Positions 6,743 through 32,000 of a DNA stretch of 32,000 nt are shown here, piece after piece. The DNA lies in the NCBI RefSeq assembly GCF_018687975.1, contig NZ_CP061310.1, forward strand, positions 1,493,584 to 1,525,583, written 5' to 3'. The stretch's first letter is position 1. Every line of letters starts with the position of its first letter. Source of the DNA: Polynucleobacter sp. es-EL-1. GTDB lineage: Bacteria > Pseudomonadota > Gammaproteobacteria > Burkholderiales > Burkholderiaceae. The translations under genes and the position numbers were made by a program. Below the pieces are notes generated by a model. It did not search any database and was not told the origin of the DNA. It worked only from the letters and a program-made list of their open reading frames with translations.

Positions 6743-6815
6743 TGGTGGCCCGGGGCGGAATCGAACCACCGACACAAGGATTTTCAATCCTTTACTCTAC
6801 CGTCCGCTACTGGCC
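6743..6815 (-). pseudogene. tRNA-Phe(GAA)-like element with an intact 3' ~55 nt and a decayed 5' acceptor/D-arm
   Basis: The reverse complement is ggccagtagcggacggtagagtaaaggattgaaaatccttgtgtcggtggttcgattccgccccgggccacca. The anticodon arm (aagga-ttGAAaa-tcctt), T-arm and ACCA end are canonical. The 5' acceptor pairs at only 5 of 7 positions, the D-stem cannot form, and the element is 3 nt short. Confidence 0.6.
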
Positions 6816-6856: not shown

Positions 6857-7007
6857 GAAAAATGTGTAGTAATTGCCTACACACTTTTGAGCATACCCAG
6901 CGTTACTTAAAGTAACGCTCAAATGACCAAACCAATCATTTTCTTCACAAGCCTATCTTTTTGTGACGTTTAGGTCCTGTTTAGGTTCTCTGGTTATGAG
7001 AGCAGAT
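6857..7007 (+). repeat. ~150-bp direct repeat, left copy (L), containing palindrome 1
   Basis: Aligns by eye along its whole length with 14742-14892. The best block is ctttttgtgacgtttaggtc..gtttaggttctctggttatgagagcagat. Confidence 0.8.
6899..6919. repeat. island palindrome copy 1 (agcgttacttaaagtaacgct)
   Basis: Perfect 21-nt palindrome read directly from the sequence. Confidence 0.95.
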
Positions 7008-7193
7008 ATCCAAAGAAAACCACTAGGATTTCAAGAGCTTACGTCGCCTGTTTATCGGTGTGTGAGTATTTGTGTGACTAATTTAAACAGAGCAGAAGAA
7101 ACACTGACTCACTCTTTGGTTTTCTAAACCACAGGATTTTTGGAGCAACCATCTAACACCTCGTTGCTCCAAAGTACTTTTTGAGTGGTTAAT

Positions 7194-7216
7194 AAGCGTT
7201 ACTTAAAGTAACGCTT
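7194..7216. repeat. island palindrome copy 2 (aagcgttacttaaagtaacgctt)
   Basis: Perfect 23-nt palindrome with the same 21-nt core. It lies 126 bp downstream of the end of the metal-efflux operon. Confidence 0.95.
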
Positions 7217-7310
7217 GATTAGCCAATGACCGCCATCGACCCAAAGGCGGACCTTGGCGGAACATGGCTCCACCAATCAACGATAGCAATCCGATTACTT
7301 CACAACAACC

Positions 7311-14742: not shown

Positions 14743-14892
14743 AAAATGTGCAGTAATTGCCTACACACTTTCTAGCATCCCCAACCGTTACTTAAAGTAA
14801 CGCCTACAACTCCAAACCCAACCTTTAGTCTCAAAAGCTAGCTTTTTGTGACGTTTAGGTCTAGTTTAGGTTCTCTGGTTATGAGAGCAGAT
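14742..14892 (+). repeat. ~150-bp direct repeat, right copy (R), containing palindrome 3
   Basis: Aligns with 6857-7007 and starts at the last base of the DUF3147-like stop codon. Confidence 0.8.
14786..14802. repeat. island palindrome copy 3 (17-nt core cgttacttaaagtaacg)
   Basis: Same core as copies 1, 2, 5 and 6, but the outer two positions are mutated. Confidence 0.9.
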
Positions 14893-15231: not shown

Positions 15232-15258
15232 GCAACCGTTACTTTACGTAACGGTTGC
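15232..15258. repeat. palindrome variant copy 4 (gcaaccgttac-tttac-gtaacggttgc), possibly a bidirectional terminator
   Basis: 11-bp perfect stem that shares cgttac/gtaacg with the 21-nt palindrome. It lies between convergent ORFs and is preceded by a C8 run. Confidence 0.7.
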
Positions 15259-18207: not shown

Positions 18208-18795
18208 CTAAATCAGCTCCACCGCATTACGCAGGATATCGGGACGAGTATCAATATAGCGCTGCGTGGTGGACATTTGACTGTGACCTGCCAACTGCAT
18301 CATGACCCTTACTGACACCCCCTTCTCACTGAGTCGTGTCAAAAAGCCACGGCGACCACTATGGCTAGTAGCGCCATTAAGCCCTGCTTGACGATATAAG
18401 CCGTTAATCACATGCGTTAAGGTGTTTGGTGTGAATCCCAAAGCCCTTTGTGTGGGGAACAATGGACGATTCATGTCTTTTGGTGGATGCGCTGCGATAT
18501 AGATGGCAAGTTCCTGTTGCATACGCTCTGATAACAGCACTACCCTACTTTTAGAGCCCTTGGTCTGATTTGCAGCTAAGTGAATCTCGCTTAACACCTG
18601 TTTATCCGCGTTTAAAACGTCGCTGTAGCGCACACTTGCTACTTCACCTATTCGCATACCCGCCCAGTGCGTTAACAGCAGTATTGCGCGATTACGCACT
18701 GCTGCTTTGGTGCTCGCTGCGTAGTCTAGTGCTCGCTGTAATTCTGCATCACTTAATGTTTTTGCTTGTGCCATGGTCTCTCCTTGTATTGCCAT
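18208..18795 (-). CDS. short tyrosine recombinase (catalytic domain only)
   Basis: 195-aa ORF carrying the R...K...HxxR...H...Y set: AGMRIGEV, TKGSKSRVV, HSGRRGF, LAGHSQMSTTQRYI. It has no N-terminal arm or core-binding domain. Confidence 0.8.
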   Translation of the reverse strand: MAIQGETMAQAKTLSDAELQRALDYAASTKAAVRNRAILLLTHWAGMRIGEVASVRYSDVLNADKQVLSEIHLAANQTKGSKSRVVLLSERMQQELAIYIAAHPPKDMNRPLFPTQRALGFTPNTLTHVINGLYRQAGLNGATSHSGRRGFLTRLSEKGVSVRVMMQLAGHSQMSTTQRYIDTRPDILRNAVELI

Positions 18796-22297: not shown

Positions 22298-23644
22298 TTA
22301 AACCATCCGCAGCTCTCGTGCTGCCCGCTTCCTGCTAGGATAGTTATCAGTAGCCTTGCCATCCGCCTCAATCAGCTTTCTAGTATTTACACCACGTAAT
22401 TGCTCAATAGCCTGTATTACCTGTAAGTGGCTATAGTGCCGCTCAATCATTAATACACTTGTACCCATTTGTTTTGCTAGCGTATGAATAGGTACCATAT
22501 CGTGAGTAAGTGCTAATGTGGCATAGGTATGGCGTAGGCTATAGAACACACGCTTTTGATTGGTCTTGGGATCTATTAGTAAGCCATGGTCTGATAAGAA
22601 GTTATCAAACATATGGTTTAAAACATCACTTAAATCTCTACCATCTTTAGCTCTAAAGATGTAGTCATCATTGGTGGGTTTAATCAGCCCAGCTAAAGGA
22701 TCTTTAATTGAGCTAGCTACCCCATAATTTCTAAGCGCAATACGCTCTAGCACCTTGACGCTAGGTAGTCGCCCAATAATCTGCCTTTGCCCTGTTTTAC
22801 CTTTTACTGTCATTTCACAACTTCTATTTAAGTTATGAATTTCAATAACTTCGCCTTCTTCATCCAATTGATCTGTCACGGTGCTAATGGGGTTCATCAT
22901 GAAGCGGATTTGCTTCCATTTCATATCAAGCAACTCAATGCCTGGCCTTGCTCCTGTATCTACCAGCATTTCCACATAATCTCTCAGGATCTCACGGCGC
23001 TCACGCACATCCCGAGTTCTACCTGATTCTATGTATGGACCTAGTAGTTTTAGTAAGGCTCTGAGTTCATGCAGCTCAAATGCTGGGCGACGCACACTCT
23101 CTTTAGTCTTGCCATCTAACTTGGGACGATTGCTCTCGGTTAAGTAACCCCGAACAATGGCTTCATCAAATACCCTGTTAAATGCAGCGTTTTGAGTCTT
23201 ACGATTGCTATTGGATAGCGCTAATCCATACTTGGCTTCACGGTCATCGTAGTACTGCTGCAGGGCGTCGTAGTCAATATTGGTTATGAGTCTTTGCCCA
23301 AGACTAGGTATGAAGTGCTCATTAATGATGCGGATGTAGTCTTTGTAGATTGACTTACCCAAGCCACCCTTCAAGTCTCGCTCCATGCGATCAATTGCCA
23401 GCATGGCGATATCTTTAAAGCGTTTGGTTACTACTGGAATACCGGAGCGTTTACGAATCTCTGCCTCCACTAATAGCTCTTTAGCCTTATTAACTGCCAA
23501 GTCAAGCTGGGTTTCTTTAGTAGTTGCTCGTATCCACTTGTTATCCACCTTATAGCGACATTGCCATACGGCGCTATGCTCGCGCTGATAGAGGGTTAGG
23601 TTACGGTGTATGAGTTGATGTGTACTTTCTTTTTTAATTGCCAT
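22298..23644 (-). CDS. tyrosine-type site-specific integrase (full length, 448 aa)
   Basis: Catalytic motifs LVDTGARPGIELLDMKW, YSLRHTYATLAL and GTSVLMIERHYSH. It has an N-terminal arm-type region (WQCRYKVDNKWIRATTKE). Confidence 0.85.
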   Translation of the reverse strand: MAIKKESTHQLIHRNLTLYQREHSAVWQCRYKVDNKWIRATTKETQLDLAVNKAKELLVEAEIRKRSGIPVVTKRFKDIAMLAIDRMERDLKGGLGKSIYKDYIRIINEHFIPSLGQRLITNIDYDALQQYYDDREAKYGLALSNSNRKTQNAAFNRVFDEAIVRGYLTESNRPKLDGKTKESVRRPAFELHELRALLKLLGPYIESGRTRDVRERREILRDYVEMLVDTGARPGIELLDMKWKQIRFMMNPISTVTDQLDEEGEVIEIHNLNRSCEMTVKGKTGQRQIIGRLPSVKVLERIALRNYGVASSIKDPLAGLIKPTNDDYIFRAKDGRDLSDVLNHMFDNFLSDHGLLIDPKTNQKRVFYSLRHTYATLALTHDMVPIHTLAKQMGTSVLMIERHYSHLQVIQAIEQLRGVNTRKLIEADGKATDNYPSRKRAARELRMV

Positions 23645-23756: not shown

Positions 23757-23777
23757 AGCGTTACTTAAAGTAACGCT
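23757..23777. repeat. island palindrome copy 5 (agcgttacttaaagtaacgct)
   Basis: Perfect 21-nt palindrome 113 bp upstream of the integrase start, preceded by a G7 run. Confidence 0.95.
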
Positions 23778-23818: not shown

Positions 23819-24238
23819 ATGAGCTTACATCTCAACTACTTAAAACCTCCATCTAAAGCGCATCGAGATTATGCAAAAGCTCTTTATGATAGAAGGAATG
23901 AGGCAATTTATATCCCAAAGGTTAATGTTGAACTACCGAATTGGAAGCCCCAAATAAATAGATGTCACGACAACTGCGCCGAGTGGTATTTAAACAATCC
24001 AAATTGCGAAATAGTTCATGGATGGCTTTCTATAGATTTAACTGCTATCGGTTTTTACAGATTTATTGCCCATTCCGTAATTAAGAATTTAGATGGCTCA
24101 TTTATAGACATTACGCCATCCTTAATTCAAACCAACTATCCATTTCTTAAAGGCAGCCTTGATTCGGATCAGTATTTTGAAGCAACAGATGTTTTACATG
24201 AGCATTTTGGAGACTCAAATCTAGATCATTGGATCTAA
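23819..24238 (+). CDS. hypothetical protein (139 aa)
   Basis: ORF only. Its stop codon overlaps the hsdR stop (convergent 4-nt overlap). Confidence 0.45.
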   Translation: MSLHLNYLKPPSKAHRDYAKALYDRRNEAIYIPKVNVELPNWKPQINRCHDNCAEWYLNNPNCEIVHGWLSIDLTAIGFYRFIAHSVIKNLDGSFIDITPSLIQTNYPFLKGSLDSDQYFEATDVLHEHFGDSNLDHWI

Positions 24239-27200
24239 CCAAGGACTGCCCTTCCAGCAGCCTCAGGATAAGCCTCGTATATATGCTCAAACATCGCTGA
24301 ACATTTGTCTTGGTACAAATCTTTTGTATACGCCTCGGGCAAGCCATCATCTAAGGCATCTTGAATGGCAAGCTTTAACTGTGATCTAGCAGTCTCTTTT
24401 TGACGCCAGTTCAACACCAGCAAATTTTTCAATTTTGCAAGTAATTCACGAGAAACCTTCTTTACCTCTGCTTTCTCAGCATTCGTTAAATCAGGAGCAG
24501 GCCTTGTCAAAATATCAAAAATAACAAGCTCTTCCTCTGACATATTCTCGCGAACGTGTCTCTCTTCTTCAGCATTTAAAGTATTTGTAAAGTTTAGTAG
24601 CTCTGCAAATATTTCTTCAATAGTCCGACTACCAGTGTTGTAACTTTCAATGAGTTCTTCAAACTTCTCAGAAAAATCAGCCCTCGTTTTATTGGCTTGG
24701 ATAAGCTTTTCCAATTTAGAGTGAATGGCGGCCTTAAGAGACTCTAAGTCTGTATTTTTATGCTTTGACTCCTTAAACTTCTGGGCAAGTGCTTGAAAAT
24801 TAATTTTTGAGAGGTCTAATGCTGCTGGTCCTTCTTTACGAATTGCCAAGCCAGTAATTGATTCATCCAAAATATCACTGATACCACCCATTATCTTTGA
24901 GATGTCTGAAGGGTTTGGATTTAATCTGACACGAATTGCCTCAACTAAGGTGGATAGACATACAACGATATTAAAAAACTCTAGAGCAGCTGGATCAGGC
25001 TTAATCGCTTTGTATAGAGTATTAACAAGTCGCTCATGACCAAATAACTGTCTACGCAAGGACTCCGGAGAAATCAGACTATCAATTGCATCCTCAATAC
25101 TTTGCAACCTCTCAAAACTTCCATCTGCTAAAGAAATTATGCGCTCCAGATTGACCCCTTTTGTATTGCAAAAGTCAAAAGCCGCCTTAATGGCAATTTT
25201 CAGATCCCTTACTAATTGCTGCTTATCTTTAACTGGATTTGTGCCACCACCACCAACTCCATAAATCGCTAATGCTTTTTCCAAAGAAGCAAATACATTT
25301 GCGTAATCAACAATCATGCCGCTGTGCTTGTCTGGGAAAACCCGATTGGCGCGTGAGATGGTCTGCATCAGCGTGTGATTACGCATCGGTTTATCCAAAT
25401 AAACAGTGGAGCAACTTGGCGCATCAAAGCCTGTCAGCCACATCGCACAAACAAATACCAACCGAAGTGGATCTTTGGAATCCTTAAAGCGCTCATCTAG
25501 CGGAGGCTGAGAATCATTCATGCGTCTACGATGCGGCTCAATATCTAAGCCCAACTCATGCATTTTAGAAATTTCGTTCTGGCTTGGCGAAACAATGACT
25601 GCCATATCAGTTGTCTTTAAAACATCTAATCGCCTTCTCAACTCGGCCAATTGAATATCACGCTGCGCTTGCTTAGGTGTTGTTTCGCCTGCTTCAGCAG
25701 CATTCTGTAATAGTTTAATCACCTCTTCTACTTTTGTAGTCTCTTGCTCCCAGGACTTTTTAACTTTATTAAAGGTCTTTAGGGCGGTAGCCTTGTCAAT
25801 GGAAACAACCATTGCCTTTCCTAAAAAACCTCGACCTAAAAAATGGGAAACAATATCTCGAGCTACAACCTCTAATCGATCATCTCTTGTAATGATGTGA
25901 TATTGCCTAGAAAGTTCACGCTCTAGTCTTGATTCTTGCTCGGGATCTAGTTCAGCTTCTTCAATTAAGCGGTATAAATCTTCATTTAAATCTGGATTAT
26001 TCAGGTGCAACTCAGGGGTGCGATTTTCATAAAATAAAGGGACGGTAGCTCCGTCCTCAACGGACTGCTGAAAATCATATATAGAAACATAATCACCAAA
26101 AACTTCTTTTGTTCTCTCTTCTCCAGCGATCAGTGGTGTTCCTGTGAATGCCAGAAACATGGCATTAGGCAAGGCCGATCTCATATTCAGCGCTAGGGTG
26201 TCATATTGACTCCTGTGTGCCTCATCAGTCATAACAATAACGTCAGATCGATCACATAATAAATCTGGAGATTGAAATTTTTGAACTAGAGTAAAAACAT
26301 ATCTATGATTTCCTCGTAGCAACTCTCTTAACTCTGCGCCACTAGATGCATGACATTTATCGCCTTCGGCTTGAGTTACTGCACCTACAGCCTTAAAGGT
26401 TCCAGCAATTTGATTATCTAACTCTACTCGATCCGTGACAACAGCAAACGTCCAGTTACCCACAAGTTTACGCAACACCTTTTGAGCAAAGAAAACCATT
26501 GAGAAGCTCTTTCCGCTACCTTGGGTCTGCCAAAAGACACCGCCTCTACCGTGACCTAGTTCCCGAGCCTCAAGCATTGATGCAATTGCATTATTAACAC
26601 CAATGAATTGATGATTCTGCCCTAGTATTTTTACTAAACCCGCTTTATGTTCCGAGAATAAAGTAAAGTTTTCCACCAAATCCAAAAGTCGCCCTTTGTC
26701 ACAAACACCTCGGAGCATTACTTCAAGAGAAACTCTTCGTGGCTCATCTTCACGCTCAATACGCTTCCACTCAAACCATCGCTCCCAATCAGCAGTCAAA
26801 GATCCAACGCGACTATCGGATCCATTTGAGGCAATCATTAGAGCGTTGTACCAAAATAAACTAGGTACTTGATCTTTGTAGTGAGTTAAATTTTCATCAA
26901 AAGCATTCCTGGCTGGAACACCCGGTTTCTTTAACTCAATGACGACCCAAGGCAGCCCATTCACAAAACCGACTAGGTCAGGTCGGCATGTATACAGCGA
27001 ACCCGTCACACTAAACTGGCTTACAAGCAAGAAATCGTTACTCTCAGGGGTTTCCCAATCAATAACCTTAATTCTTATAGTCTTTTGACCGCCATTCTCA
27101 GTATCTGGAATTGAAACTGGAACACCTTCTTTTAAGAATTCATAAATTTCACGGTTTGCGGCAGCTAATCCCATTGTCGATCTATCTCTAACAATTTCAT

Positions 27201-27429
27201 CAATAGCCGAAGTTATTGATGAAGGTTGTATATCGGAATTATTAAGCTTTATCAAAGCTGATCGTAGTCGGGGAAGTAACACAACCTCACTTTTAGTGCT
27301 TCGGCCAAAACACCCATCGCCAGAAAATACCTCATCGGATGCATTTAGTATCTCCCATCCCAAGGAAGCAAATAAATTAATAGATGGCTGCTCAATTAAT
27401 TGATCTTCAGAATAGGCATGGGCATTCAT
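24235..27429 (-). CDS. hsdR: type I restriction endonuclease, R subunit
   Basis: 1064-aa ORF with Walker A QTQGSGKSFS, a DEAH box (MTDEAHRSQ), SF2 helicase motifs and a long helical C-terminus. It is downstream of hsdM-hsdS. Confidence 0.9.
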   Translation of the reverse strand: MNAHAYSEDQLIEQPSINLFASLGWEILNASDEVFSGDGCFGRSTKSEVVLLPRLRSALIKLNNSDIQPSSITSAIDEIVRDRSTMGLAAANREIYEFLKEGVPVSIPDTENGGQKTIRIKVIDWETPESNDFLLVSQFSVTGSLYTCRPDLVGFVNGLPWVVIELKKPGVPARNAFDENLTHYKDQVPSLFWYNALMIASNGSDSRVGSLTADWERWFEWKRIEREDEPRRVSLEVMLRGVCDKGRLLDLVENFTLFSEHKAGLVKILGQNHQFIGVNNAIASMLEARELGHGRGGVFWQTQGSGKSFSMVFFAQKVLRKLVGNWTFAVVTDRVELDNQIAGTFKAVGAVTQAEGDKCHASSGAELRELLRGNHRYVFTLVQKFQSPDLLCDRSDVIVMTDEAHRSQYDTLALNMRSALPNAMFLAFTGTPLIAGEERTKEVFGDYVSIYDFQQSVEDGATVPLFYENRTPELHLNNPDLNEDLYRLIEEAELDPEQESRLERELSRQYHIITRDDRLEVVARDIVSHFLGRGFLGKAMVVSIDKATALKTFNKVKKSWEQETTKVEEVIKLLQNAAEAGETTPKQAQRDIQLAELRRRLDVLKTTDMAVIVSPSQNEISKMHELGLDIEPHRRRMNDSQPPLDERFKDSKDPLRLVFVCAMWLTGFDAPSCSTVYLDKPMRNHTLMQTISRANRVFPDKHSGMIVDYANVFASLEKALAIYGVGGGGTNPVKDKQQLVRDLKIAIKAAFDFCNTKGVNLERIISLADGSFERLQSIEDAIDSLISPESLRRQLFGHERLVNTLYKAIKPDPAALEFFNIVVCLSTLVEAIRVRLNPNPSDISKIMGGISDILDESITGLAIRKEGPAALDLSKINFQALAQKFKESKHKNTDLESLKAAIHSKLEKLIQANKTRADFSEKFEELIESYNTGSRTIEEIFAELLNFTNTLNAEEERHVRENMSEEELVIFDILTRPAPDLTNAEKAEVKKVSRELLAKLKNLLVLNWRQKETARSQLKLAIQDALDDGLPEAYTKDLYQDKCSAMFEHIYEAYPEAAGRAVLG

Positions 27430-27439
27430 TAGGAAAAGC

Positions 27440-28651
27440 TCAATTATTAATTTGGATTGATAATAATTTCAGAAGTAAAAGATCACGCATCTTACTTAGC
27501 TTAGAAATTTGCAAAGAAAGTGTAAGAATCTGCCTTAGCATTGGCGCAGCAACCCTCTCAAACTCAACTATCAAACTTTCTGGGGGTGAAATAAACTGCA
27601 TAGCTTTAACAGCCGATCCAGCATGCAAAATAGTTGTTCCTTTTGCATGCGCCCTTATCGTATCTTGAATGCTATCAGAAAGAAGCAAGTTATAGGCAAA
27701 GCTCCACCCCAGCCTACTCTCATCTTTAATCACAAGTTTCCGTATACCAGTTGAATACGAGCCTGACAAACCGATCCTCACAAGCCCAACAGATCCATCT
27801 AGAGTTAAAGCAATATCATCTCGATTTAAATACTTATTCCTAGCTAAAGCATGTGGAATGAATAAATCGCTTTCACGTTTACTAAGATCTCCCACCCGGA
27901 GAAACTTGACCAATCCTTCCGCCCACTCATCCATGTAAGAGTCGGATCCTGGTTCAATGCCCCTCTCAAAATCAGCAAAATCTGATACTTTTCGTGCCTC
28001 CCATCCGGTAGGTAGTGATGTCTCCCCTAAAGGGGTTGCTTTATGTTCAACATATCCTGGATACCTAAAGTTTACAAACCACTCGCGATAAATTGACTGT
28101 GACATTTCTTCAAGGATTTTAATGCGACGGCCATTATTAGCGATAAGATTGTCGAAAGAAGAAAGAATTTCACCAATACGCTTTTGGTCCTCAATGGGCG
28201 GCGTATAGATGGGGAATGATAATAACTTATCTAAACTCAAGTTATCTTGTGTAGCCCCCCTTGATACTGATAGGAATTTGTTACGCATCAAGTCCAATGA
28301 GTACTTTACAAAATGCAAATCAGATTTATGAGGATCAGGAATAAATCCTACAATACTGTCAGGAAAATAAGCTGGAAACTTTAAGATTGCAGTCTTTGCT
28401 GTATTAGCCCCAGCGATAGTTATGCATAACGTATTAGCAGGCCACTGCTTGCTCTGCAATATTCCAAAATCGCTATAGGTATGCAAATATTCGGTGATGT
28501 AAGGATCTGCAGTCATAATATCTGCAGTCTGTATGAAGGGGTGAACACCGCCGTAAAGGCGCGAATCATTTCGCGGGCGATGCCTTGATTTTCCCCTGCC
28601 AACATAACCGAGTTCATCAAGCCGCATCGGCTTCCATGATTTATCCATCAT
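27440..28651 (-). CDS. hsdS: type I R-M specificity subunit
   Basis: 403-aa ORF with two target-recognition halves separated and followed by conserved helical spacers (QKRIGEILSSFDNLIANNGRRIKILEEM ... LSKMRDLLLLKLLS). Its start overlaps the hsdM stop. Confidence 0.85.
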   Translation of the reverse strand: MMDKSWKPMRLDELGYVGRGKSRHRPRNDSRLYGGVHPFIQTADIMTADPYITEYLHTYSDFGILQSKQWPANTLCITIAGANTAKTAILKFPAYFPDSIVGFIPDPHKSDLHFVKYSLDLMRNKFLSVSRGATQDNLSLDKLLSFPIYTPPIEDQKRIGEILSSFDNLIANNGRRIKILEEMSQSIYREWFVNFRYPGYVEHKATPLGETSLPTGWEARKVSDFADFERGIEPGSDSYMDEWAEGLVKFLRVGDLSKRESDLFIPHALARNKYLNRDDIALTLDGSVGLVRIGLSGSYSTGIRKLVIKDESRLGWSFAYNLLLSDSIQDTIRAHAKGTTILHAGSAVKAMQFISPPESLIVEFERVAAPMLRQILTLSLQISKLSKMRDLLLLKLLSIQINN

Positions 28652-30276
28652 TATTCGGCAGTTCTTAATATTTCGGAAATATTTAATGAGATATTTTTTT
28701 CTATTTCCCGCGCTTCCAGATTTAAAAATTCAAGTTCTTCACTTAGGAACCCAAGTTGATCGTTAAAATCTTTACTACTAGTCTCATCACCAAGAGGGGC
28801 TCCAACGTAAAGCCCTGGATTTAACGACCATCCTTGTGCTTCTATATCTGATAATGTAGCCACCTTACATAAACCCAAAATATCTTTATAGACAGGCTTG
28901 GCACCGAAAATTTCTTCAAGCTTAGCTTTAAGCTCTTCACCACCTTGCGCTAAGTCAACTTTATCGCCGCGATATAGCTTAACAATATTTGATATAAAGT
29001 CTATTTGATTTTTCGTCCAGTCCCTATGAGACCTATCAATTTTTCTGTAGATGTGACGAGCATCTATGAAGAGTACAGTATTAGCCCTTGGAGTTTGCGA
29101 TTTACCTTTATCCAAAAACCAAAGCATACATGGTAGTGTCACTGTGTAAAACATATTAGATCCGACAGATATCATCACATCAACAACCTTATCCTGAAGG
29201 AGTTTCTCCCTCAGTTCGCGTTCAGACGATCTTGCGTCAGCAGCAGAATTTCCCATAACAAATCCCGCTCGCCCCTTAGCATTGAGGGCTGAATAAAACA
29301 TCTGAATCCATATGTAGTTTGCGTTATCTGCTCGAGGTAACCCAAATGGAAATCTCCGACCACCTCCCACCATCTCTTTAAGTCGCTCCTTGTCCACTGA
29401 ATCAACATTAAAGGGTGGATTTGCAAGAACAAAATCGAACTGCCCAACCGCTCCGTGAGGGTCATCATAATAACTATTGGTATTGCCGCCGTGACGTATA
29501 TCACCCTCCAAGCCATGAATCGCCAAATTCAAACGACATAAGCGACCAGTGTCATCAGTTTTTTCAACGCCAAAAATTGACAGTTCTGCAGTTGGATTCT
29601 TTTGATGTTCCGAAACAAAACGTGCAGACTGAACGAACATTCCACCTGAGCCACATGCCGGATCAAGAATGCGTCCATGATATGGCTCAATAATTTCTGT
29701 TAGTAATTTCACAATGCTTGAGGGTGTATAAAATTCACCACCGCCCTGCCCTTCGGTCATAGCAAATTCACCAAGGAAGTACTCGTATACGCGTCCGAAT
29801 GCATCAAATTCCAAACTTACAGGTATTTCAGAAACTTTTTTTAGCAGCCCTTTAAGTAACGAGCTAGTAAAGAGGTTGTAAGTTTTTGGAAGCACTCCAG
29901 CCAAACGAGGGTTATGCTTTTCAATTTCACGCATTGCCTCATTAACTTTCGCACCAATATTCTCTGACTCAGGCAAAGTTAGCAAATAGTCATATCGAGC
30001 TTCTGGGCTCAGATAAAGAATTCCTTCGGCCAAATATGCAGTAGGGTCTTCGGATCGACTAACTCTCCTTGGAGAGGAGCCTTCTTTTCCTAACTGCTCA
30101 TGTTTAGAGGCGAATCTAGCCTCTGCAAATCTCAAAAATATCAATCCCAGTATTGGCCCAGCATACTCCTGGGTTTTCAATCCAGAATTTGCTCGGAAGT
30201 CATCCGCAGCATCCCATAGATGTTTCTCCAGGGTTGCATTATTCGCATCTTTTTCAGAAGCTGCAATCCAACGCAT
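28651..30276 (-). CDS. hsdM: type I R-M N6-adenine DNA methyltransferase subunit
   Basis: 541-aa ORF with SAM motif LDPACGSGGMF, catalytic NPPF (FVLANPPFNV) and an HsdM N-terminal helical domain. Confidence 0.9.
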   Translation of the reverse strand: MRWIAASEKDANNATLEKHLWDAADDFRANSGLKTQEYAGPILGLIFLRFAEARFASKHEQLGKEGSSPRRVSRSEDPTAYLAEGILYLSPEARYDYLLTLPESENIGAKVNEAMREIEKHNPRLAGVLPKTYNLFTSSLLKGLLKKVSEIPVSLEFDAFGRVYEYFLGEFAMTEGQGGGEFYTPSSIVKLLTEIIEPYHGRILDPACGSGGMFVQSARFVSEHQKNPTAELSIFGVEKTDDTGRLCRLNLAIHGLEGDIRHGGNTNSYYDDPHGAVGQFDFVLANPPFNVDSVDKERLKEMVGGGRRFPFGLPRADNANYIWIQMFYSALNAKGRAGFVMGNSAADARSSERELREKLLQDKVVDVMISVGSNMFYTVTLPCMLWFLDKGKSQTPRANTVLFIDARHIYRKIDRSHRDWTKNQIDFISNIVKLYRGDKVDLAQGGEELKAKLEEIFGAKPVYKDILGLCKVATLSDIEAQGWSLNPGLYVGAPLGDETSSKDFNDQLGFLSEELEFLNLEAREIEKNISLNISEILRTAE

Positions 30277-30330: not shown

Positions 30331-30351
30331 AGCGTTACTTAAAGTAACGCT
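30331..30351. repeat. island palindrome copy 6 (agcgttacttaaagtaacgct)
   Basis: Perfect 21-nt palindrome between the hsdM start and the tRNA-Ile terminator. Confidence 0.95.
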
Positions 30352-30352
30352 C

Positions 30353-30380
30353 AAAAAAATACCAACCCGAAGGTTGGTAT
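30353..30380 (-). terminator. rho-independent terminator of the tRNA-Ile gene
   Basis: On the minus strand, ataccaacc-ttcg-ggttggtat is followed by ttttttt, 10 nt after the CCA end. Confidence 0.75.
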
Positions 30381-30389
30381 TTTCATTTC

Positions 30390-30682
30390 TGGTGGGCCCA
30401 CCAGGACTTGAACCTGGGACCAAAGGATTCCGGTTTGTGTAGCTTTCACTACTCCCTGGACTATGCCTTCATCATATCGATTGCTCGACTTAGATGGGTG
30501 CCGTCTAGTCTCTACACCTTCAACAGCACTTTCACGCTGAAGCTTGGCTCGGCGTTAGCTTGTGCAGCTTTTGGCTACATTTAGCTTTCTCCGAATTTGA
30601 CACCATCCCTTATGCAGTTTCCACGCATAAGGCACAACTTTCGCTATGAGTCCTCTGCTCTAACCAACTGAGCTATGGGCCC
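30390..30682 (-). tRNA. tRNA-Ile(CAU, lysidine type; Met not excluded) interrupted by a group I intron
   Basis: The 5' exon (30682-30646) is gggcccatagctcagttggttagagcagaggactcat. The 3' exon (30429-30390) is aatcctttggtcccaggttcaagtcctggtgggcccacca. Joined, they give a canonical 77-nt cloverleaf: 7-bp acceptor, anticodon loop ctCATaa and an encoded CCA. G1-C72 excludes an initiator tRNA. C4-G69, C5-G68 and G27-U43 match the TilS determinants I recall for E. coli tRNA-Ile2, which it closely resembles. Confidence 0.85.
30430..30645 (-). ncRNA. group I intron (Azoarcus tRNA-Ile-type, subgroup IC3-like), 216 nt, no ORF
   Basis: Intron RNA blocks gtgcc...gggatggtgtcaaattcgg, aacgccgagccaagcttc and gaaggtgtagagactagacggcaccca..ctaag match the Azoarcus ribozyme core as I remember it. 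It is inserted directly after anticodon CAU, with a gtg guide sequence 10 nt into the intron, and it ends in G (..aaccgg). Confidence 0.85.
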
Positions 30683-30876
30683 TAAAACTGTTTTTACTAC
30701 ACACCTTGCTGCTGGTGTTTGCCGCTTCAAAACCACACTAAAACCGCATTTACTACACACCTCGGTTTTTGCTTCGGTGTGTAAGCGGTGTGTAGTGAAT
30801 TTATACCGCCTAATTCACCACTAACCTCTTGAATCTATTGAGGTCTTAACTACAAGACCCCTAGGGCTTCTTTCTT

Positions 30877-30913
30877 ATGAGTCCTCTGCTCTAACCAACT
30901 GAGCTATGGGCCC
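30877..30913 (-). pseudogene. orphan duplicate of the tRNA-Ile 5' exon
   Basis: 37 nt are identical to 30646-30682, or 39 nt with one flanking t on each side. No matching 3' exon follows. Confidence 0.85.
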
Positions 30914-30985
30914 TATGCCAACATTGTAATTGAAGGGTCAAGCCACCCCTTATCTAATTGGTGGAATTGTATTTACATGCCAATT

Positions 30986-31027: not shown

Positions 31028-31258
31028 ATGATCGTTTCCAAATGGGGCAATAGCCTAGCTATTCGACTACCTTCCCAAGTGGTGGAATTTTTGAAGCTTA
31101 AGGAAGGGGATGATATTGAGGTTCAGGTCGCCGATAAAAAACATTTTCATATTAGAAAAAAACCATCTCCTCAAGAGAGGATAGAGGGTCTGAGAAAATT
31201 TCGTGGACGAATGCCTGCTGATTTTCACTTTGATAGATCCGAACTGAATGAACGCTAA
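31028..31258 (+). CDS. vapB: AbrB/MazE/SpoVT-family antitoxin (VapB-like)
   Basis: I chose the ATG at 31028, 9 nt after aaggag. MIVSKWGNSLAIRLPSQVVEFLKLKEGDDIEV is the classic swapped-hairpin antitoxin motif. It overlaps the PIN gene by 11 nt. Confidence 0.8.
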   Translation: MIVSKWGNSLAIRLPSQVVEFLKLKEGDDIEVQVADKKHFHIRKKPSPQERIEGLRKFRGRMPADFHFDRSELNER

Positions 31259-31652
31259 GAAAATATTCTTTGATACCAATACCCTGCTTTACCTACTGTC
31301 ATCGGATAACAAAAAAGCAGATTGGGTAAGCAAAAATCTACAGCAGCACAATGTGATTAGCGTTCAAGTGCTCAATGAATTTACATCAGCTAGCCTGAGA
31401 AAAATAAAAATATCCAATGCTGAGCTAGATGAGTTTTTGGATCTATTTACATCCACATTCAATGTGAGATCTCTAGATATAGATACCTTTGAAACTGGAC
31501 TAATGGTCTCCAGGCGCTATGGATATCAACACTATGATTCGATGATTATTGCTGCAGCACTGCAGGCGGGTTGCGAAAGACTGTATTCAGAAGATATGCA
31601 GCATCGACAGGTAATCGATAAAAAACTACAAATCGTGAATCCCTTTGCATAA
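31248..31652 (+). CDS. vapC: PIN-domain toxin (VapC-like ribonuclease)
   Basis: 134-aa ORF with the PIN acidic residues in context: FFDTN, VLNEF, YDSMI, YSEDM. Confidence 0.8.
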   Translation: MNAKKIFFDTNTLLYLLSSDNKKADWVSKNLQQHNVISVQVLNEFTSASLRKIKISNAELDEFLDLFTSTFNVRSLDIDTFETGLMVSRRYGYQHYDSMIIAAALQAGCERLYSEDMQHRQVIDKKLQIVNPFA

Positions 31653-31681
31653 GAGATTCACGATATTGGGTAATGCAGCTA

Positions 31682-32000
31682 TTAATCTTCCTCGAGGAAG
31701 GTCTTAAGTTTGTCGCTACGGCTTGGATGACGCATTTTGCGGAGTGCCTTAGCTTCAATCTGACGAATACGCTCACGCGTTACGTCAAACTGCTTTCCAA
31801 CTTCTTCGAGAGTATGGTCTGTGCTCATTTCAACACCAAAGCGCATACGCAATACTTTTGCTTCACGTGGCGTTAATGAATCCAATACATCTTTCACCAC
31901 ATCGCGCATCGAGTCATGCAATGCCGCCTCAGCTGGAGCCAATGTATTGCCATCCTCAATGAAGTCGCCCAAATGAGAGTCTTCATCGTCACCAATTGGC
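31682..32000 (-). CDS. rpoD: RNA polymerase sigma-70 factor RpoD, C-terminal part (gene continues beyond the window)
   Basis: The frame stays open to the window edge. Region 4 ([42 protein letters not shown]) is nearly identical to the E. coli RpoD C-terminus as I recall it. Confidence 0.9.

Follow-up and report, generated by a model that had tools for sequence, protein, structure and literature searches.

We examined a window of 32,000 nucleotides (nt) from Polynucleobacter sp. es-EL-1 (contig NZ_CP061310.1), in which an orphan 5′ half of a tRNA-Ile(CAU) gene lies between rpoD and a complete, intron-split copy of that gene, at the left end of a probable genomic island. Coordinates are window positions, and the island, the tRNAs and rpoD are read on the minus strand, where the order is the 3′ end of rpoD, a MazE/AbrB-PIN gene pair on the opposite strand, the orphan, a 194-nt spacer, the intron-split tRNA(CAU), a terminator, hsdM, hsdS and hsdR (Table 1). 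The original prediction had pointed to a perfect copy of the 5′ exon 231 bp upstream of the real one, and this was borne out. A repeat search of the window returned an exact 40-nt direct repeat at 30645-30684 and 30876-30915, with starts 231 nt apart, and the 37-nt 5′ half GGGCCCATAGCTCAGTTGGTTAGAGCAGAGGACTCAT occurs in exactly two minus-strand copies (30646-30682 and 30877-30913), with no exact match in 100 shuffles of the sequence. The tRNA's 3′ half is present once (30390-30429); neither a second or decayed 3′ half nor a second tRNA(CAU) was found across the 32 kb, and ARAGORN, with introns allowed, made no tRNA call at the orphan.

The orphan had been thought to end exactly at the intron insertion point, after CAT, and the sequence that follows, aagaaag, to resemble the intron start agcgaaag. 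We found instead that the orphan reads CTCAT-AA-GAAAG, its tRNA-derived part running two bases past the insertion point, spanning the whole anticodon loop CTCATAA (30875-30881) and ending at the loop/stem boundary. The 'aa' after CAT represents positions 37-38 of the loop. What comes next, 'gaaagaagccc', has no homology to the intron and constitutes a mobile element's conserved left end. There is no similarity between the two copies beyond 2 nt upstream or 1 nt downstream, and the 'TA' flanking both on the 5′ side is a chance match of 2 nt.

The complete gene carries an intron of 216 nt that encodes no endonuclease and gives a full-length match to the Rfam model Intron_gpI (RF00028), scoring 52.8 bits against a gathering score of 50. 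In the ARAGORN call, again allowing introns, CAT of the tRNA(CAU) is followed by an intron of 216 nt. Joined by splicing, the exons give a perfect cloverleaf of 77 nt, the same in sequence as the intact host tRNA found in metagenome contigs and at locus L090 (L numbers denote loci and contigs used for comparison). The splice junctions, ...CTCAT/AGCG...ACCGG/AATCC, place the insertion after position 5 of the anticodon loop, with U at -1 and the omega-G, a setting that fits the definition of class Ile2.5Ug (doi 10.1101/2020.01.27.920355). Judged by these features the intron is a group I intron of this bacterial tRNA class, and self-splicing is predicted. The intron divides the CTCATAA core into 5 + 2 nt and moves the anticodon-stem half-sites 216 bp apart. 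In a scan for the sigma-70 consensus, no promoter on the tRNA strand was detected in the spacer or upstream of the orphan.

One genome per species was scanned for related loci with a 24-nt piece of the intron core as seed, which yielded 103 loci, mostly from Polynucleobacter and other Burkholderiales, and metagenomes were scanned with the pattern rpoD end, 5-25 nt, 5′ half...CTCATAATCC. The intron-core seed biased the genome scan to intron-bearing loci, and look-ups seeded with the integrase of the island were used as a correction. An orphan followed after ~160-215 nt by the intron-tRNA was present in at least 29 of the 103 loci (31 counting two indel-bearing orphans), in members of Polynucleobacter, Sterolibacterium, Gulbenkiania, Duganella, Dechloromonas, Thiobacillaceae, Nevskiaceae and Steroidobacteraceae.

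Among these 103 genome loci and 75 metagenome contigs, all four classes of recombination product at an attachment (att) site were seen (attB, attL, attP-like and attR), with CTCATAA as their common 7-bp core. The attB class is represented by an intact intronless tRNA 5-25 nt past the rpoD stop in the 75 metagenome contigs, 54 of which have a 3′ half identical to the 3′ exon of the window; L090 is a further intact intronless tRNA at an empty site. The attL class, in which the 5′ half is followed by the core and the spacer, occurs 18 times including the window, and the attP-like class, in which an island right end takes the place of the 5′ half, occurs in 12 loci, the upstream sequence ending ...TCTGCT instead of in a tRNA half. 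The attR class, right end, core and 3′ half, was found in L018 and, decayed, in L017, as well as in metagenome contigs L126, L150 and L166, where an intact host 3′ half stands behind the same right-end family. A 3′ half of the attR type lies 1.6-2.1 kb downstream in L017, L041, L088 and L109.

The breakpoints of these classes agree to the base. In an alignment of 32 sequences, attL and attP-like sequences turn homologous exactly at CTCATAA, and the island left end is kept in 32 loci, whether behind a 5′ half or behind an island right end. Identity of the window with attB ends after CTCATAA, the sequence past the core not being tRNA, and each right-end alignment, to L018, L030, L108, L112 and L117, runs up to the final core base and no further. 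Right-end identity to these five loci and to L150 is 75-87% (87% for L150), and window positions 7400-6994 are 100% identical to L083 over 407 nt. In Duganella rivi (L109) both tRNA halves flank an insert of 2454 bp, and joining the cores in silico removes these 2454 bp and rebuilds a perfect 79-nt tRNA(CAU) behind the native promoter after rpoD. As far as their sequences go, the four junction classes are the products expected of site-specific recombination at the 7-bp core. The suggestion that the orphan is the scar of an element targeting the anticodon loop thus fits the switch of the att classes exactly at CTCATAA, and in related strains the orphan does belong to a larger, recognisable element with ordinary att structure, the arrangement that had been named beforehand as counting against the original prediction.

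Some junctions of other kinds were also seen. In two Pseudoduganella loci (L023 and L078) an inverted junction of CTCATAA and 3′ half lies ~450-490 nt upstream of the intron core, and the intron-tRNA has no orphan; these are at odds with a simple attR, and an inversion between cores may have produced them. The Moraxella phages Mcat4 (L014, 1215-1252) and Mcat5 (L015, 11981-12019) have an orphan 5′ half of tRNA-Ile(CAU) ending in CTCATAA just after tRNA-Leu(TAG), followed by AT-rich non-tRNA DNA, with no intron within the stretches read. Prophages of the Moraxellaceae thus seem to have junctions of this non-restoring kind too. When the interval from orphan to exon was compared by BLAST with collections of phages and plasmids, matches were confined to the two tRNA halves, the spacer having no relative there, and all ten viral contigs with the exact 37-mer (10/10) hold a full intronless tRNA.

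Comparison of the rpoD-tRNA interval in relatives also indicates which of the two copies is resident. The rpoD-orphan distances in 15 genomes place the start of the orphan ~7-17 nt past the rpoD stop in most Polynucleobacter genomes without the toxin-antitoxin insert described below, and at 153 nt in L044. Between 1 and 11 nt set the orphan apart from the adjacent 5′ exon in 18 of 29 other genomes; examples are T in the orphan against C in the exon at position 6 (GGGCCT vs GGGCCC) in L016, L044, L063, L067 and L080, and D loops that do not agree in L103 and L110. In the other 11 of the 29 the two are identical over 37 nt, as is the pair in the window. Because the orphan sits at the native tRNA position and differs from the neighbouring exon, it is most readily taken as one half of the host gene. 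By the same token, the presence of the same spacer and tRNA behind unrelated left flanks in 12 loci points to the intron-bearing gene as an imported copy; strain ZE-4 has five copies of spacer plus intron-tRNA, partly in arrays. The original prediction, which regarded the orphan as a copy of the real 5′ exon, had the relationship backwards, and the 40-nt repeat appears to be the likeness of a broken tRNA gene to an imported homologue, with no duplication event.

A candidate for the enzyme responsible is encoded within the island. A 448-amino-acid (aa) open reading frame has, in translation, the R...HxxR...Y signature of tyrosine recombinases, and it has 2456 homologues named integrase, some of them with PF00589; we assigned it as the integrase because of these motifs and of the homologues matching PF00589. 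A search of PDB sequences with this protein gave noise only. Members of the same integrase family lie 0.3-1.5 kb downstream of the intron-tRNA in nine loci (L022, L025, L039, L055, L061, L084, L096, L105 and L108).

The DNA next to the core also has features that may mark an att arm. All four matches to YTACACACC in the 32 kb fall inside the spacer (0.2 expected by chance), and the motif also adjoins the integrase gene in L022, L119, L121 and L122. All three matches to ACACACCG in the 32 kb lie at the two island ends, and repeats of the YTACACACC type were not found upstream of native intron-tRNA genes that have no att core. The YTACACACC repeats are thus putative arm-type sites of the integrase. 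A conserved hairpin in the same spacer (30840-30861) shows compensatory changes in L028/L081 (GAGAGCCTT/AAGGCTCTT) and changes from G.U to A-U in L074/L076; it has no U tract and so is not a classical terminator.

The look-ups seeded with the integrase showed that related enzymes are also encoded in other settings at tRNA-Ile genes. In L121, L122 and L124, relatives that are ~57% identical come immediately after a tRNA-Ile gene that is intact, and the same CTTACACAC repeats are present; the classical, restoring type (intact tRNA, arm repeats, integrase) was found after rpoD in L121, after hrcA in L122 and L123, and in L124. Locus L119 (3588-3900, downstream of hrcA) is a replacement type without an intron: the orphan is followed by CTCATAA, a spacer of ~195 nt with the same repeats, an intact tRNA(CAU) and an integrase 57% identical to that of the window. 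The anticodon stem of this replacement tRNA is GTCGA/TCGAT, against GAGGA/TCCTT in the host, which may be an alternative way for the gene to escape its own integrase. The intron as an obligatory part of this type of island was rejected on the basis of the intronless L119 and the restoring L121, L122 and L124.

Taken together, these comparisons make it highly probable that the orphan is the 5′ half of the resident tRNA-Ile(CAU) gene, split in its anticodon loop by an island which brought an intron-bearing replacement tRNA. The resident gene would have lain just downstream of rpoD, and an island with a tyrosine integrase would have recombined with it inside the 7-bp loop CTCATAA. As the DNA next to the island core is unrelated to tRNA, the host gene would stay split, its 5′ half remaining by the rpoD-side flank as attL (the orphan) and its 3′ half coming to lie, if it still exists, at the far end of the island or array as attR, beyond the window. 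The replacement tRNA-Ile(CAU), with its Azoarcus-type intron, would follow ~190 bp inside the left end, and then cargo and integrase. The attR would then read right end/CTCATAA/TCCTTTGGTCCC..., the excision circle GGATATCTGCT/CTCATAA/GAAAGAAGCCC, and the restored site GAGGA/CTCATAA/TCCTTTGG. The 448-aa integrase presumably catalyses the crossover, and the cell would now depend on the tRNA of the island.

Table 1 Features of the window and their proposed assignment.
Feature	Position	Strand	Basis
rpoD 3′ end, host flank	31682..32000	-	Pfam Sigma70_r4 and Sigma70_r3
Orphan, probable host-derived 5′ part of resident tRNA-Ile(CAU): acceptor strand, D arm, 5′ strand of anticodon stem	30882..30913	-	
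Putative attL core CTCATAA, complete anticodon loop, inferred crossover (overlap) region	30875..30881	-	Homology switch among four att classes
Island left end (att arm), 192 bp from core to replacement tRNA	30683..30874	-	Kept in 32 loci
Conserved hairpin GGGGTCTT-GTAGTT-AAGACCTC, 13 nt past attL core	30840..30861	-	
Arm-type-like YTACACACC, four copies	30697..30795	- (30776-30784, 30787-30795); + (30697-30705, 30753-30761)	
5′ exon of island-borne replacement tRNA-Ile(CAU)	30646..30682	-	37-mer match and ARAGORN
Group I intron, 216 nt, Azoarcus-like	30430..30645	-	Rfam RF00028; boundaries from ARAGORN and spliced cloverleaf
3′ exon of replacement tRNA including CCA	30390..30429	-	Identical to host 3′ half in 54 metagenome contigs
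Terminator-like hairpin 3′ of replacement tRNA	30356..30383	-	
Cargo: type I restriction-modification hsdM, hsdS, hsdR	24235..30276	-	Pfam; bracketed by CGTTACTTAAAGTAACG copies at 30333-30349 and 23759-23775
Putative island integrase, divergent tyrosine recombinase, 448 aa (ARPGIE..., LRHTYAT, ERHYSHL)	22298..23644	-	
Small 195-aa XerC/D-like recombinase, catalytic domain only	18208..18795	-	Pfam Phage_integrase 1.7e-26; NCBIfam
Internal CTCATAA junction, then 'type-2' left end (CCAGAGAACCTAAAC...)	14879..14885	-	Apparent border of two array elements
Island right end (other att arm), tandem motif GTCACACAAATACTCACACACC at 7057-7078	7001..7250	-	407 nt identical to L083
Right-end core CTCATAA, joined to another 'type-2' left end	6994..7000	-	

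Several points weigh against this account. The evidence is wholly comparative, and neither excision nor integration has been observed. The integrase is weak by profile, with no Pfam match at 1e-3 and an NCBIfam XerA match of E = 0.001. The host 3′ half (attR) is not in the window, so that the full island or array is not delimited, and the right-end core at 6994-7000 is joined to element-like sequence and not to host DNA. Finally, the orphan is far better conserved than the spacer adjacent to it, with 0.028 differences per site among 18 genomes compared with 0.168 in the spacer and 0.016 in the functional 5′ exon, and this conservation could stem from gene conversion or from an unrecognised function.

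The simplest reading of the conservation is recent or recurrent integration into a conserved, mostly functional gene, perhaps with conversion from the neighbouring exon. Near-identical spacers or introns are shared by hosts that diverge by 18-20% at the rpoD 3′ end, and the correlation between host and spacer distances is weak (r = 0.39); the left end of the island appears to move between hosts. Neutral decay of the orphan after a single ancient integration was considered and rejected, as the orphan is too conserved and the island ends do not track host divergence. In two Limnobacter loci (L097 and L101), compared with L103, rpoD is followed by part of a Dechloromonas-type spacer and the intron-tRNA, with no orphan, a state that agrees with a later disappearance of the orphan; it also agrees with a deletion joining the two 5′ halves, by which the intron gene would become fixed at the native locus.

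The conservation also bears on whether the orphan is kept for a role as RNA, either as a 5′-exon mimic ending in CAU (an alternative or trans-splice substrate, or a decoy) or as a tRNA-like signal for rpoD 3′ processing, roles which would be compatible with an attL origin. Besides being nearly as conserved as the functional 5′ exon, the orphan lies upstream of the tRNA on the same strand, where the spacer shows no sigma-70-like promoter and read-through is plausible, and it is followed by the hairpin with compensatory changes. However, some orphans have stem- or loop-breaking changes (three in L032, GAGGC in L093, identity at 26 of 37 positions in L053), the intron-tRNA stands behind rpoD with spacer homology but no orphan in L097 and L101 (vs L103), and in 12 loci the same tRNA follows an island right end without any 5′ half. 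As abundant intact attB alleles together with horizontal island turnover would explain the conservation, we give an RNA role a slim chance. The free 5′-exon mimic for the ribozyme that had been envisaged is likewise unsupported, given the stem-breaking mutations in some orphans and the breakpoints, which are of the integrase type.

The same breakpoints speak against the two origins by which the orphan had been derived from the intron-bearing gene itself. A local partial duplication of that gene, as a tandem relic or by replication slippage and with later gene conversion, would agree with the 100% identity of the window copies over 40 nt, and conversion could also produce the identity over 37 nt seen in 11 of 29 genomes. 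It would not account for the abrupt loss of similarity 2 nt upstream and 1 nt downstream of the copies, nor for the contiguous CTCATAA of the orphan, which the intron-bearing gene does not have. Moreover, the sequence that follows the orphan is joined to unrelated island ends at the same base in 12 loci, D loops or stems are unlike those of the adjacent exon in other genera (L103, L109, L110), and in L109 the matching 3′ half is still present 2.4 kb away, which together make a duplication very improbable. Hardly any credence is left for an origin in the biology of the intron, whether by reverse splicing, by recombination with a cDNA or by a homing-related repair in which the 5′ exon was copied as far as the splice site. 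The orphan does end within 2 nt of the intron insertion site, but its boundary is the loop/stem border and not the splice site, and orphans ending at CAT without AA were not seen. The 216-nt intron encodes no endonuclease, the same CTCATAA-bounded orphan stands beside an intronless replacement tRNA in L119, and such orphans are also present in the Moraxella prophage records, with no intron within the stretches read. Intron-mediated recombination is further disfavoured by the stem-breaking mutations of some orphans.

If the orphan is, as we favour, the split resident gene, the intron could be more than a passenger. By interrupting the core, it would act as a breaker of the att site and make the replacement gene a non-substrate both for this integrase family and for competing elements at the same attB. 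A wider idea, which we put forward tentatively and think rather doubtful, is that the intron is tied to integration in two ways, splitting the core and so making the gene, along with any genome that has become reliant on it, refractory, and being spread among Betaproteobacteria, as an endonuclease-less Azoarcus-type intron, by the islands. Deletion between the orphan and the imported 5′ exon could then fix the intron at the native locus, and the island would be addictive, since no tRNA-Ile(CAU) would remain intact after its excision.

Of the known systems, the tRNA-dependent lysogeny of actinobacteriophages (Fionnbharth, Cluster L, Gaia; Guerrero-Bustamante & Hatfull, mBio 2024, PMC10865867) comes closest. 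In both cases a tyrosine integrase would recombine attP with an attB lying within a tRNA gene of the host. The shared core is so short (~8-10 bp in the phages, 7 bp here) that the junction does not regain a functional tRNA, the core has putative arm-type sites on either side, and the element carries a cognate tRNA, which in the phages rescues the host. Dependence of the host on this tRNA is experimental for the phages and inferred here. The present island differs in being free of phage genes, in occurring in Betaproteobacteria and some Gammaproteobacteria, often in tandem arrays, and in its cargo of restriction-modification, efflux and other genes. It also differs in its target, tRNA-Ile(CAU), in a core that is the whole anticodon loop, and in a replacement tRNA whose group I intron splits that core. 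The island thus appears to work like tRNA-dependent lysogeny without being a member of the phage group.

In classical tRNA islands the att core is adjoined by the tRNA's 3′ part, and the fragment left orphaned is a 3′ one. The crossover of such islands and prophages lies in the anticodon loop, and the 3′ half that the element brings makes the gene whole again, as Williams reportedly described in Nucleic Acids Res in 2002. The present island shares with them the target sublocation, the integrase superfamily and the logic of attL and attR, and the classical mode is found at this very site in close relatives (L150, L166, L126, L121, L122). It differs in that nothing like a tRNA adjoins the core in the window, the direct repeat is 7 bp and the orphan is a 5′ half; the classical block of identity up to the tRNA 3′ end is absent in the window but present in L150, L166, L121 and L122.

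An Azoarcus-type group I intron in tRNA-Ile(CAU), of subgroup IC3, is said to have been reported by Reinhold-Hurek and Shub in 1992. The intron of the window resembles it in residing in the same tRNA, in being inserted after CAU, in a shared 24-mer core, in its small size and in having no open reading frame. In the literature covered, which was incomplete, we found no report of an intron of this type travelling in the replacement tRNA of an island. Protection by introns has been proposed in a different context, Randau and Soll (2008) having argued, as summarised in PMC4090602, that integrating elements are warded off by introns in tRNAs and by tRNA genes being split. Going by that summary, the likeness lies in an anticodon-loop intron destroying attB, as the 5+2 split of CTCATAA and the separation of the half-sites by 216 bp would do here. 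The difference is that theirs are archaeal, protein-spliced introns guarding host genes, whereas here a bacterial group I ribozyme sits on the integrating element itself. In both cases protection of the tRNA gene by the intron is hypothetical.

An attL origin provides an ordinary mechanical explanation for an odd 5′-half tRNA fragment. It also points to a widespread and apparently undescribed mode of island integration in proteobacteria, in which an essential tRNA gene, the only one of its isotype, is broken and a replacement is brought in. This connects two fields that have not been linked, those of tRNA-targeted integrases and of bacterial tRNA group I introns, and makes it possible to test both the movement of endonuclease-less bacterial tRNA introns between lineages and, in bacteria, the idea of Randau and Soll of an intron as att-site breaker. 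Island finders that expect repeats of 3′ fragments, and tRNA finders that skip introns, will mis-annotate such loci. Metagenome contigs and metagenome-assembled genome (MAG) contigs with an identical HsdM (L001 1-130, L002 1-90 and L003) all end inside the intron or the 3′ exon, and look-ups with HsdM gave short MAG contigs only, broken in the intron and without upstream context. As short-read assemblies break at the multi-copy intron-tRNA, islands of this kind are likely under-reported in MAGs.

Towards the other end of the window the island becomes composite. The stretch from 30881 to 6994 measures 23.9 kb and holds a third core at 14885-14879, and so looks like an array of at least two elements. 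After both this core and the right-end core comes a left end of a second type (CCAGAGAACC...); the two copies (14750-14885 and 6860-7000, minus strand) are near-identical over ~130 nt, with the layout CCAGAGAACCTAAAC...palindrome...GTGTGTAGGCAATTACT[A/G]CACA, and the same left end was found in L052, L126 and L171. The region appears to be built of elements with one core in common, arranged as a mosaic or in tandem.

The cargo of the island consists of restriction-modification, RND efflux and unassigned genes, and no capsid, tail, terminase or lysis domains were detected among the island open reading frames scanned with Pfam and NCBIfam. The place of hsdMSR, between the tRNA and the integrase gene, is taken by a HEPN/ATPase pair in L120. 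Homologues of the small 195-aa recombinase lie beside the large integrase in L016, L025, L096, L119 and L125, often with DUF6641 and DUF6876 genes.

On the host side, the short gap between rpoD and the tRNA contains, outside the island, an extra insert at 31028-31652 on the plus strand with a toxin-antitoxin pair (MazE/AbrB-type antitoxin and PIN-domain toxin). The insert is common to L054, L055, L059 and L067, and ten other Polynucleobacter-like genomes are without it; an exact-protein look-up of the PIN toxin and the MazE-like antitoxin matched no record. A bidirectional terminator-like hairpin lies by this insert, at 31632-31664.

A perfect palindrome of 17 nt, CGTTACTTAAAGTAACG, occurs in six copies (6901-6917, 7197-7213, 14786-14802, 15237-15253, 23759-23775 and 30333-30349), one of which has a single mismatch, with none expected by chance, and it is also present in 26 of the fetched loci. 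The copies are placed just past the terminator of the replacement tRNA, 115 nt upstream of where the integrase gene starts, and close to either element end, and the palindrome could be the site of a regulator or recombinase that marks cargo modules. Beyond the core at 6994-7000 and its type-2 left end lies a low-scoring gene resembling tRNA-Phe(GAA) (6746-6815, minus strand; 32.8 bits with Rfam, mismatches in the acceptor and D stems). In L052 a homologue (354-444), not called by ARAGORN, stands directly after the intron-tRNA; the gene may be a degenerate tRNA borne by the element.

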